From a virus (Duplodnaviria; Heunggongvirae; Uroviricota; Caudoviricetes): 15,900 bases of DNA. Location of the stretch: the IMG/VR virus record IMGVR_UViG_2695420863_000009. One strand, written 5' to 3'. The notes below the pieces were generated by a model that was given only the letters and a program-made list of their open reading frames with translations, searched no databases and was not told where the DNA came from. Shown piece after piece: positions 270 through 15,900 of the stretch. The position numbers were made by a program, and so were the translations under genes. How positions within the stretch are numbered: position 1 is the stretch's first letter; each line of letters starts with the position of its first letter.

Positions 270-271
270 GT

Positions 272-299
272 CCATAAGAAAGCCCCTCCGGAGAGGGGC
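272..299 (-). terminator. putative terminator hairpin downstream of the tRNA cluster
   Basis: 7-bp stem gcccctc/gaggggc (282-299) with cgga loop; on the minus strand it is followed by tttctt. The T-run is weak. Confidence 0.3.
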
Positions 300-536
300 T
301 GGAGAGTGGCGCTATGTGCCATTGCATGGTGCCGGGTGCCTCCCGGTGAATTCAGTACCAGCACCTGAATCCGCGATTATCCCATATACCTACTCGCTGA
401 TTGCCCCTCCGCACAGGGGGATTCACCATGCCAGTTTCTTTTAACAAACTCCCCGCAAACCAGACAACAGTCAACCGCCTGAATTGTGAGACATTTAAAA
501 AAAAGGCCCGCAAAAGCGAGCCAGGGAAAATAAGTG

Positions 537-710: not shown

Positions 711-786
711 TGGTGGCCCTTGCTGGATTTGAACCAGCGACCTGGCGATTATGAGTCGCTCGCTCTCACCACTGAGCTAAAGGGCC
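711..786 (-). tRNA. tRNA-Ile2 (lysidine type) or tRNA-Met, anticodon CAT
   Basis: Cloverleaf with acceptor GGCCCTT/AAGGGCC, anticodon loop CTCATAA, T-loop TTCAAAT, CCA encoded. It closely resembles E. coli ileX / phage ileZ as I recall them. Confidence 0.8.
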
Positions 787-5361: not shown

Positions 5362-5517
5362 TTACTCCTCAGGTTCGTAAGCTGTGAAGACAGCGACCTC
5401 CGTCTGGCCGGTTCGGACTCGTACCTCGCAGAGGTCTTTCCTCGTTACCAGTGCCGTCACTATGACGGTTAAACAGATGACGATCAGGGCGATTAACATC
5501 GCCTTTTGCTGCTTCAT
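5362..5517 (-). CDS. hokD: Hok/Gef-family type I toxin (small membrane peptide)
   Basis: 51-aa product MKQQKAMLIALIVICLTVIVTALVTRKDLCEVRVRTGQTEVAVFTAYEPEE, which is near-identical to my recollection of RelF/HokD. SD aaggag precedes the ATG at 5517. The track ORF extends 19 codons further upstream in frame. Confidence 0.85.
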   Translation of the reverse strand: MKQQKAMLIALIVICLTVIVTALVTRKDLCEVRVRTGQTEVAVFTAYEPEE

Positions 5518-5732
5518 AGCCTGCTTCTCCTTGCCTTTCGGCACGTAAGAGGCTAACCTACGTTTGTGAAGCATAGATTGGGCCTCAGATTAATGTTAAG
5601 CGTCTTGCAGGACGCGTAATGTTAACTGGGGCTTTTCTCTGTCTGCCTTACGGTGGCATGCCCGAGGCAGACAGCCTCAAGCACCCGCAGCAATTCTACT
5701 TAACTCTCGCTTTACCGCAAACCGTTTTTACC

Positions 5733-14488: not shown

Positions 14489-15019
14489 GGTCAGGTGGAG
14501 TGCGTGCGCCGGACACGGGTGAGCATCCGGCACTGACAGTTTACTGAAAGGATATGTCCCTGAAAAGTCAGGGCATAACGCGAAAGCGCACGGCGAAATT
14601 GGTCTCTCTGTACGGTGTCGTTAAATTTAGTTCGACCGTGCGCTTCCGGTTGTGGCACTCCGCGAAATGGCGCGGCGGTAAGTATGGCTGGGGTTTCCTC
14701 CATTGCTCCAGAAAATGCACCGGGTTGTCAGGTTGACCATACGCTTAAGTGACAACCCCGCTACAACGCCCTCTGTTATCAATTTTCTGGTGACATTTGG
14801 CGGTATCAGTTTTACTCCGTGACTGCTCTGCCGCCCTTTTTAAAGTGAATTTTGTGATGCGGTGAATGCGGCTATGCGCACGCGGAACAGTTAAAGCAGT
14901 AAGGCGGTATTTTACGGGCGTAACGAGCATCAACTAACCCGGCGTTAATTGTTAACTGGTTAACGTCACCTGGAGGCACCAGGCACTGCATCACAAAATT
15001 CATTGTTGAGGACGCGATA
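14489..15019 (+). repeat. repeat copy 2: structured leader + dicF + dicB 5'-UTR
   Basis: Aligns with copy 1 across its length with scattered substitutions and a small insertion. Confidence 0.8.
14784..14836 (+). ncRNA. dicF: DicF-like sRNA, copy 2 (G-to-A variant)
   Basis: Same 53 nt as copy 1 except A at position 12 (GTGACATTTGG vs GTGACGTTTGG); followed by TTTTT. Confidence 0.75.
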
Positions 15020-15208
15020 ATGGAAACGTTATTACCAAACGTTAATACGTCTGAAGGTTGTTTTGAAATTGGTGTCACTATCAGTAACCCTGTATTTACT
15101 GAAGATGCCATTAACAAGAGAAAACACGAACGGGAGTTATTAAATAAAATATGCATTCTTTCAATGCTGGCCCGTTTACGTCCGATACAAAAAGGATGTG
15201 CACAATGA
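15020..15208 (+). CDS. dicB: cell-division inhibitor DicB
   Basis: 62 aa, METLLPNVNTSEGCFEIGVTISNPVFTEDAINKRKHERELLNKICILSMLARLRPIQKGCAQ; near-identical to my recollection of K-12 DicB. Lies downstream of dicF as in Qin. Confidence 0.8.
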   Translation: METLLPNVNTSEGCFEIGVTISNPVFTEDAINKRKHERELLNKICILSMLARLRPIQKGCAQ

Positions 15209-15396
15209 ATACAGCATTTGCACTTGTTCTGACAGTTTTTCTTGTTTCCGGAGAGCCAGTTGATATTGCAGTCAGTGTTCACAGGACAATGCAGGAGTGT
15301 GTGACTGCAGCAACCGAACAGAAAATTCCCGGTAACTGTTACCCGGTCGATAAAGTTATTCACCAGGATAATAACGAAATCCCGGCAGGTCTTTAA
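15205..15396 (+). CDS. ydfD: YdfD-like small membrane/lysis protein
   Basis: 63 aa, MNTAFALVLTVFLVSGEPVDIAVSVHRTMQECVTAATEQKIPGNCYPVDKVIHQDNNEIPAGL; ATGA overlap with the dicB stop. Confidence 0.7.
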   Translation: MNTAFALVLTVFLVSGEPVDIAVSVHRTMQECVTAATEQKIPGNCYPVDKVIHQDNNEIPAGL

Positions 15397-15488
15397 AACA
15401 GTTCCGTAATAAATATCCGGTTTCATTCTTATATGCCAGCAATGGCAGGGATTTGTTCACCCTTAAATCTGTAATGAGGTAAAACAAA

Positions 15489-15550: not shown

Positions 15551-15574
15551 NNNNNNNNNNNNNNNNNNNNNNNN
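15551..15574. other. assembly gap (24 N)
   Basis: Run of N; the sequence resumes inside the leader repeat. Confidence 0.95.
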
Positions 15575-15869
15575 GACACCGGGTTGTCAGGTTGACCATA
15601 CGCTTAAGTGACAACCCCGCTGCAACGCCCTCTGTTATCAATTTTCTGGTGACGTTTGGCGGTATCAGTTTTACTCCGTGACTGCTCTGCCGCCCTTTTT
15701 AAAGTGAATTTTGTGATGCGGTGAATGCGGCTGAGCGCACGCGGAACAGTTAAAACCAAAAACAGTGTTATGGGGGGATTCTCTGTATCCGGCGTTAATT
15801 GTTAACTGGTTAACGTCACCTGGAGGCACCAGGCACCGCATCACAAAATTCATTGTTGAGGACGCGATA
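15575..15869 (+). repeat. repeat copy 3 (partial leader + dicF + dicB 5'-UTR)
   Basis: Identical to copy 1 over the shared region 12785-13032, then continues into a dicB start. Confidence 0.8.
15643..15695 (+). ncRNA. dicF: DicF-like sRNA, copy 3
   Basis: Identical to copy 1; followed by TTTTT. Confidence 0.75.
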
Positions 15870-15900
15870 ATGGAAACGTTATTACCAAACGTTAATACGT
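15870..15900 (+). CDS. dicB: dicB 5' end, truncated by the window edge
   Basis: ATGGAAACGTTATTACCAAACGTTAATACGT encodes METLLPNVNT, identical to the dicB start at 15020. Confidence 0.6.
   Translation, partial: METLLPNVNT

Follow-up and report, generated by a model that had tools for sequence, protein, structure and literature searches.

The sRNA DicF and the protein DicB are two cell-division inhibitors of Qin-type prophages, present in several copies in EHEC-like strains, and how much of each is obtained from one transcript is set both by termination at DicF and by the processing of the RNA that reads through. The lambda N leader and the T7 early mRNA RNase III sites offer an analogy, of mechanism only, in which a cleaved helix lies in the leader of an early operon just before a ribosome-binding site; in the case of lambda N, cleavage by RNase III changes translation. 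Two 3' ends have been described for DicF itself: in PMC5069750 and PMC9438474, both citing Faubladier, Cam & Bouche 1990, the 53-nt form is ascribed to intrinsic termination, and the 3' end of a 72-nt form, in E. coli K-12, is ascribed to RNase III (Faubladier 1990 J Mol Biol 212:461). In PMC10448788, RNase III is described only as the maker of the 5' end of a 190-nt DicF precursor.

Here we describe a long-range RNA helix between dicF and dicB in a 15.9-kb stretch of viral DNA ("the window," by which we mean the whole stretch analyzed). The locus has the same operon position as the K-12 dicBF site and nearly the same sequence; the RNase III cleavage reported in the literature is that of the K-12 site. 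The K-12 arms of the helix (UGAAUUUUGUGAUGUGGUG / CACUGCAUCACAAAAUUCA, at about 1649443-1649462 and 1649572-1649592 in MG1655) differ from those of the window only in the wobble states of two adjacent pairs: U-G and G-U in K-12, C-G and G-U in the second DicF copy of the window and C-G and G-C in the third.

The window consists of three stretches joined by runs of N (13033-13043 and 15551-15574) and carries three DicF copies, all on the + strand (12851-12902, 14785-14836 and 15644-15695), each of which matches Rfam RF00039 at 76.7-77 bits, above the family threshold of 48 bits. A complete dicB comes after copy 2; copy 3 leaves the window just past the dicB start. By the MG1655 annotation of dicF (1649382-1649434), the 5' end of DicF copy 2 is at 14784, the equivalent of MG1655 1649382. 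The region 14700-15210 has 100% identity to E. coli strain 118UI, and of the 5426 complete E. coli genomes 4646 have similar sequence, at a median of two places per genome. The features of the locus are collected in Table 1. The sole candidate for a coding reading of the spacer was a 184-aa minus-strand ORF (14872-15426) that overlaps dicB, and we treated it as spurious. The first segment of the window has a match to the sok antitoxin RNA (5512-5686, minus strand, 117.5 bits), which implies a toxin-antitoxin locus of the hok/sok type.

Table 1. Features of the dicF-dicB region and of the other DicF copies, in window positions.
Feature	Position	Strand	Basis
DicF sRNA copy 2, 53-nt form as annotated in MG1655; 3' end is the intrinsic terminator hairpin	14784-14836	+	Rfam RF00039, 77 bits at 14785-14836
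DicF terminator U-tract; weak predicted pairing with the dicB Shine-Dalgarno region in read-through RNA	14837-14841	+	sequence, folds, pairing probabilities
5' arm, copy 2 (core 14846-14864); putative RNase III cut for 72-nt DicF at ~14855-14860	14844-14864	+	repeat search, folds, covariation; cut by arithmetic from DicF 5' end
Multi-hairpin domain inside the helix, ~120 nt	14865-14983	+	MFE structure, covariation, STnc100 model match (31.1 bits, E 3.9e-5)
3' arm, copy 2 (core 14984-15002); putative partner RNase III cut near 14994/14995	14984-15004	+	repeat search, folds, covariation; cut from 2-nt 3' overhang geometry
dicB Shine-Dalgarno GAGGA	15008-15012	+	sequence, pairing probabilities
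dicB, 62 aa (METLLPNV...)	15020-15208	+	ORF list; named dicB in matching E. coli genomes
5' arm, copy 3	15703-15723	+	repeat search, fold
3' arm, copy 3; G-C where copy 2 has G-U	15834-15854	+	repeat search, fold
5' arm, copy 1; 3' arm lost in the N run starting at 13033	12910-12930	+	sequence

A long helix between dicF and dicB

The inverted repeat exists, is far beyond chance, and pairs in the RNA as a long helix that encloses the spacer between dicF and dicB. The original prediction, made from the sequence, had proposed a stem of about 19 bp closing about 18 nt before the dicB ATG, and its description of the site holds in detail: the arms at 14846-14864 and 14984-15002 are 19 nt long and 95% complementary with one G-U, 119 nt lie between them, and the 3' arm ends 17 nt ahead of the ATG at 15020. 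The claimed difference between copies is also there, with cactgcatc (G-U) in copy 2 and caccgcatc (G-C) in copy 3, so that the arms of copy 3 (15705-15723 / 15834-15852) are 100% complementary over 19 nt and contain no wobble. Across 1000 shuffles of 14700-15100 that kept the dinucleotide composition, no inverted repeat with one G-U or none exceeded 14 bp, as against the 19 bp observed.

RNA folding agrees with the predicted stem, since every arm base falls inside the long-range helix in the folds of 14837-15025 and of its copy 3 counterpart (15696-15875). Both folds lengthen the helix to 21 bp (14844-14864 / 14984-15004 in copy 2), beyond which there is a weaker continuation that sets the DicF terminator U-tract opposite UUGUUGAGGA. 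Fold energies were -64.7 kcal/mol for copy 2 (z = -4.2) and -68.2 kcal/mol for copy 3 (z = -6.2) relative to dinucleotide shuffles, and the 20-nt and 19-nt arm cores had probabilities of being unpaired of 0.00-0.02. A search upstream of dicF for another partner of the 5' arm found none. In copy 1 the 5' arm is present (12911-12930); its spacer stops right after CACCTGGAG at an N run (13033-13043), in which the 3' arm is lost.

The enclosed domain, with the DicF terminator on its 5' side and the dicB ribosome-binding site on its 3' side, is made up of a hairpin at 14868-14883, a variable insert at 14884-14940, a 10-bp hairpin at 14941-14967 and a further hairpin at 14969-14983 (CCUGG AGGCA CCAGG). 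The middle of the spacer is mosaic (14884-14940 in copy 2, 15743-15790 in copy 3), with the arms and flanking hairpins kept: copy 2 has an insert different from the one in copy 3 and K-12, which it exceeds by 9 nt. Several further insert variants are carried by viral contigs, with inner lengths of 98-124 nt.

Conservation and covariation of the helix

It had been pointed out that the difference between the arms of copies 2 and 3 preserves the structure. This is true, but as evidence a single G-C/G-U change between two copies is weak, because mismatching variants circulate too: at this position, 173 dicB/kilR/rha-type loci have G-C (113), G-U (51) or an A-C mismatch (9), and at the neighboring arm position they have C-G (125), U-G (45) or C-A (3). 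Among close dicB relatives the arms are nearly invariant, with changes at two or three positions; the sets of 88 and of 173 loci show only single transitions in the arms, some of which give A-C or C-A mismatches, and a DicB scan of genome contigs yielded 7 loci only and added little diversity. Since the close relatives cannot by themselves prove a structure, we added distant ones, obtained from phage records with blastn and from viral contigs with a pattern scan (the pattern, used for part of the set, fixes some of the junction residues), and aligned the resulting 101 distinct sequences with MAFFT.

In this set, 10 of the 21 pairs of the helix are changed on both sides with pairing kept, and the inner 9 bp are paired in essentially all relatives, compensatory changes included. 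In Klebsiella phages, for example, the arms are CCUUGCAAUGCAGUG / CACUGCAUUGCAAGG, with A-U replacing the G-C or G-U of the dicB loci, and further relatives have the arms CAAUGCGGUG / CGCCGCAUUG. One relative (L146) has GCGAA / UUCGC in place of GUGAA / UUCAU and GGUG / CACC in place of GAUG / CAUC, and another (L140) has UGGGAUG / CAUCCACA in place of UGUGAUG / CAUCAACA, giving GGGAUG / CAUCC pairing. The enclosed hairpins vary in the same manner: both sides are changed in 7 of the 10 pairs of the hairpin at 14941-14967, and in the hairpin at 14969-14983 a U-A has become G-C in 27 sequences. For the three-helix structure as a whole, 91.8% of the alignment cells of the 101 sequences are paired, as opposed to 34-44% after a shift of the partners by 1-3 columns. 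The covariation score of 0.193 compares with 0.110 for shuffled alignments and was reached by none of 500 shuffles. The complementarity recurs in homologs, with compensatory changes in the distant ones.

Many of the pairs are G-U or U-G, which on the opposite strand would be A-C mismatches, and we therefore read the structure as RNA of the + strand, the strand of dicF and dicB. The same pairs bear on a reading at the level of DNA, in which the repeat would be a palindrome bound by a protein, or a recombination joint where phage modules meet, and pairing in the RNA would be incidental. The arms do flank a mosaic middle (14884-14940 vs. 15743-15790), and the module is joined to different downstream genes. 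However, the wobble pairs would also be mismatches in a DNA cruciform, the compensatory changes preserve the pairing and not the sequence, and the 119 nt between the arms are far for a protein-binding palindrome. We rejected the palindrome on the strand asymmetry of the G-U pairs and regard a DNA-level role in general as very improbable. The helix is a genuine, conserved and strand-specific RNA structure, with compensatory changes that maintain it.

Probable RNase III processing and the dicB leader

In size the helix suits RNase III, having 21 bp where about two turns (at least 20 bp) are needed. Counting from the DicF 5' end, the 3' end of the 72-nt form would fall at 14855 (14784 + 71), or as far as 14860 should the U-tract belong to the 53-nt form. 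Both positions are within the 5' arm, at a distance of 4-9 bp from the inner helix end. Such a place is normal for an RNase III cut in a two-turn duplex, and the enzyme leaves 2-nt 3' overhangs; for a cut after 14855, the partner cut would lie near 14994/14995. It seems probable that the long-range helix is the RNase III processing site that gives the 72-nt DicF. We infer that the site mapped in K-12 is this helix, an identification that rests on coordinates, arithmetic and secondary citations. The proposal that the stem is an RNase III substrate tied to the formation of the DicF 3' end was probably right, given a helix of at least 21 bp with the calculated 72-nt end in its 5' arm, but it is a rediscovery: this reading has been known since 1990 and is not new.

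RNA-seq of wild type and rnc cells lists an RNase III-dependent position at 1649470, between dicF and dicB and flagged as known, with 26 reads in rnc and 0 in wild type (PMC5371410 Table S1, Gordon 2017). This position maps 8 nt past the 5' arm, in a table that is noisy and has many low-count entries. Because it lies outside the arm, it supports an RNase III-dependent loss of spacer RNA and not an exact cut.

A second, shorter inverted repeat is found upstream of DicF copy 2: 13 nt at 14581-14593 / 14636-14648 (CGAAAGCGCACGG / CCGTGCGCTTCCG, 92% complementary), a hairpin also present in K-12 (L001 1365-1377 / 1423-1435). Its 3' arm covers 14647, a position 137 nt upstream of the DicF 5' end, where one would expect the 5' end that, according to the literature, RNase III makes on the 190-nt precursor.

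If transcription reads through the DicF terminator, 14844-14864 would pair with 14984-15004 and close the multi-hairpin domain of ~120 nt. RNase III would then cut both arms and part the ydfABC-dicF RNA from the dicB-ydfD RNA, leaving the dicB mRNA with a leader of ~25 nt and excising a spacer domain of ~140 nt that would still be closed by ~9 bp.

The helix could also have a role that involves no cleavage, its compact fold shielding the operon RNA, which is untranslated over a long distance, against RNase E or Rho-dependent termination and letting read-through transcription reach dicB. There is indeed a long stretch to protect (567 nt from the ydfC stop to the dicB start in K-12), the arms are firmly paired in the folds (unpaired probability 0.00-0.02), and the same module stands ahead of kilR, which is under NusG/Rho-dependent termination control (PMC5793797, PMC10798246). 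Shielding would, however, leave unexplained both the stem extension to at least 21 bp, which is specific to the versions that follow a terminator, and the reported RNase III-dependent end, and we judge it to be quite unlikely.

With cleavage as the preferred reading, the original prediction had further suggested that the stem could couple DicF 3'-end formation to dicB translation. In the uncut RNA (14784-15060), the GAGG of the Shine-Dalgarno sequence has a predicted probability of being unpaired of 0.04-0.11 (0.02-0.19 across dicB-type RNAs); it would be masked in the full-length RNA because it is paired with C and U residues just past the DicF terminator. For an RNA that begins at 14995, as would be left after cutting, the predicted unpaired probability is 0.99 for AGGA and 0.02 for the first G. 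Copy 3 and K-12 behave as copy 2 does for Shine-Dalgarno exposure in the folds, and for the start codon of copy 2 pairing is predicted in the uncut and the cut RNA alike. The masking mini-helix has 4 bp, two of them G-U, and among the 173 loci there are 13 dicB loci with GCCG for GCCC ahead of the U-tract and an unchanged Shine-Dalgarno sequence, so that the mini-helix is uncompensated in these 13; in the kilR-type module of Rac, the Shine-Dalgarno sequence is predicted to be mostly unpaired (0.57-0.95).

A masked Shine-Dalgarno sequence is predicted by folding, but the comparative data do not support masking. Coupling to dicB translation is a reasonable hypothesis; we found no demonstration of it in the literature examined, where the 2023 study of dicBF regulation contains no assay of dicB translation in rnc. 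That cutting of the helix affects dicB translation is possible, although we lean against it, and our best guess at the effect would be a modest activation by unmasking of the ribosome-binding site.

The spacer domain, STnc100 and reuse of the module

When 14700-15100 was searched against Rfam at a relaxed threshold, the only families at E < 1 were DicF and STnc100 (RF02076). The STnc100 match extends over the full model length at 14834-15052 (31.1 bits, E 3.9e-5), and the inner stem falls on the closing helix of the model. Because the gathering threshold of STnc100 is 47 bits, the spacer is not a member of the family by the Rfam rule; on the strength of the model match and the motifs described below, it is a sub-threshold relative. 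Spacers of the dicB, kilR, tciA and Klebsiella types all match STnc100, at 28-43 bits, with no other structured family matched there, and they have in common a GGUGAAU junction and the CACCNGGAGGCACCNGGCAC hairpin. The residues at the junction do not vary among E. coli, Klebsiella and P1-type phages, some of them being fixed by the pattern with which part of the sequences were gathered.

STnc100/PasD resembles the spacer in having a multi-branch fold under a long-range helix, whose 5' strand leads into GGUGAAU and whose 3' strand follows a CCNGG AGGCA CCNGG hairpin, and in being prophage-borne. The closing helices differ in a compensatory manner (GCAUGGUG / CACCAUGC in STnc100, AUGCGGUG / CACCGCAU in the dicF-dicB spacer) and in length, with at least 21 bp in the spacer and 8 bp in STnc100. 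The spacer, unlike STnc100, has no terminator of its own and lies between an sRNA terminator and an ORF, not downstream of tRNA or stx genes. A 2026 preprint ties PasD to STnc100 and makes no mention of DicF (bioRxiv 10.64898/2026.05.13.724894); in the literature we found no paper linking the dicF-dicB spacer to STnc100. A true STnc100 is present in the same window (270-460, minus strand, 138 bits), downstream of three tRNA genes (540-613, 630-703 and 714-786, minus strand), and it has the GGUGAAU junction and the CACCNGGAGGCACCNGGCAC hairpin.

This kinship raises an alternative in which the helix serves mainly to close a structured RNA that stands on its own and is a sister of STnc100/PasD: RNase III would free the ~140-nt domain, or the domain would bind a protein or ligand in cis, and the DicF 3' end would be a by-product. 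STnc100 being the only other Rfam family at E < 1, the scores of 28-43 bits among the relatives, the common GGUGAAU junction and CACCNGGAGGCACCNGGCAC hairpin, the compensated inner 9 bp and the junction residues that stay invariant from E. coli to Klebsiella and P1-type phages (fixed in part by the pattern) are all in keeping with such an RNA, as is the 9-bp closing stem that a cut near 14855/14995 would leave, comparable to the 8 bp of STnc100. All of the scores, however, fall under the gathering threshold of 47, and STnc100 itself has no known function. The K-12 spacer, with its 0 wild-type and 26 rnc reads (PMC5371410), suggests decay after cutting and not a stable product, yet the operon is repressed under laboratory conditions. 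On balance, we consider a mainly autonomous RNA unlikely.

The same module recurs ahead of other genes. It is found ~20 nt upstream of kilR in Rac, in Rac-like phages and in Stx phages of Shigella, and also upstream of a rha-like gene, of tciA/terB in P7 and D6, and of small ORFs in Klebsiella phages, with STnc100 matches of 28-43 bits at all of these places. The KilS-kilR leader of Rac has the same order as the dicF-dicB region: sRNA terminator, 5' arm, spacer domain, 3' arm, Shine-Dalgarno sequence and the gene for a cell-division inhibitor. KilS is a Rac sRNA (MG1655 b4833; PMC8175672) and scores 39.1 bits on the DicF model, which is sub-threshold. The Rac leader differs in that a single bulged A interrupts its 3' arm, where U-G also replaces U-A, in that the downstream protein is KilR and not DicB, and in that its U-tract (U5) pairs with an A5 that ends one nucleotide before the Shine-Dalgarno sequence. 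The rnc-dependent position listed for kilR-sieB in PMC5371410 Table S1 (1418510) lies upstream of KilS and outside the helix. In MG1655 the Rac leader is at 1418229-1418502 on the minus strand (L102; also L089 and L093), and its spacer ends 21 nt before kilR.

Judged from this shared arrangement, Qin-type and Rac-type early operons have in common a module in which sRNA terminator, long helix with its domain, Shine-Dalgarno sequence and division inhibitor follow in this order. Two modest new leads come out of the comparison, the kinship with STnc100 and the recurrence of the module before kilR, rha-like genes and tciA; specialists will not be surprised by the recurrence. A broader reading would make the ~120-140-nt domain an unrecognized class of structured leader RNA, sister to STnc100/PasD. 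In P1-like phages and in the temperate phages that infect E. coli, Shigella and Klebsiella, it would stand immediately before early genes that are toxic or manipulate the host (dicB, kilR, rha-like, tciA), in most cases directly behind an sRNA terminator, and cleavage by RNase III would switch on the downstream gene or free the domain as a third RNA of the operon; this we put forward as speculation with a small chance of being correct.

Leaders of the E. coli dicB/kilR type, at 81-85% identity, also appear in records from unrelated hosts, namely Aeromonas phage AP1 (H31), Actinobacillus phage vB_Apl-pPE4 (H56/L101) and a Veillonella parvula MAG (L006), the last with a DicB of 87% protein identity; these are probably due to contamination or mis-binning. 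A different arrangement is seen in one viral contig (L106, 8046-8330) and in ~25 similar ones, where the STnc100-like domain (43.1 bits) comes first and is followed by a DicF/KilS-like terminator hairpin, after which there is a second, unrelated long-range inverted repeat (ACAAAACAGAGAAGA ... TCTTCTCTGTTTTGT).
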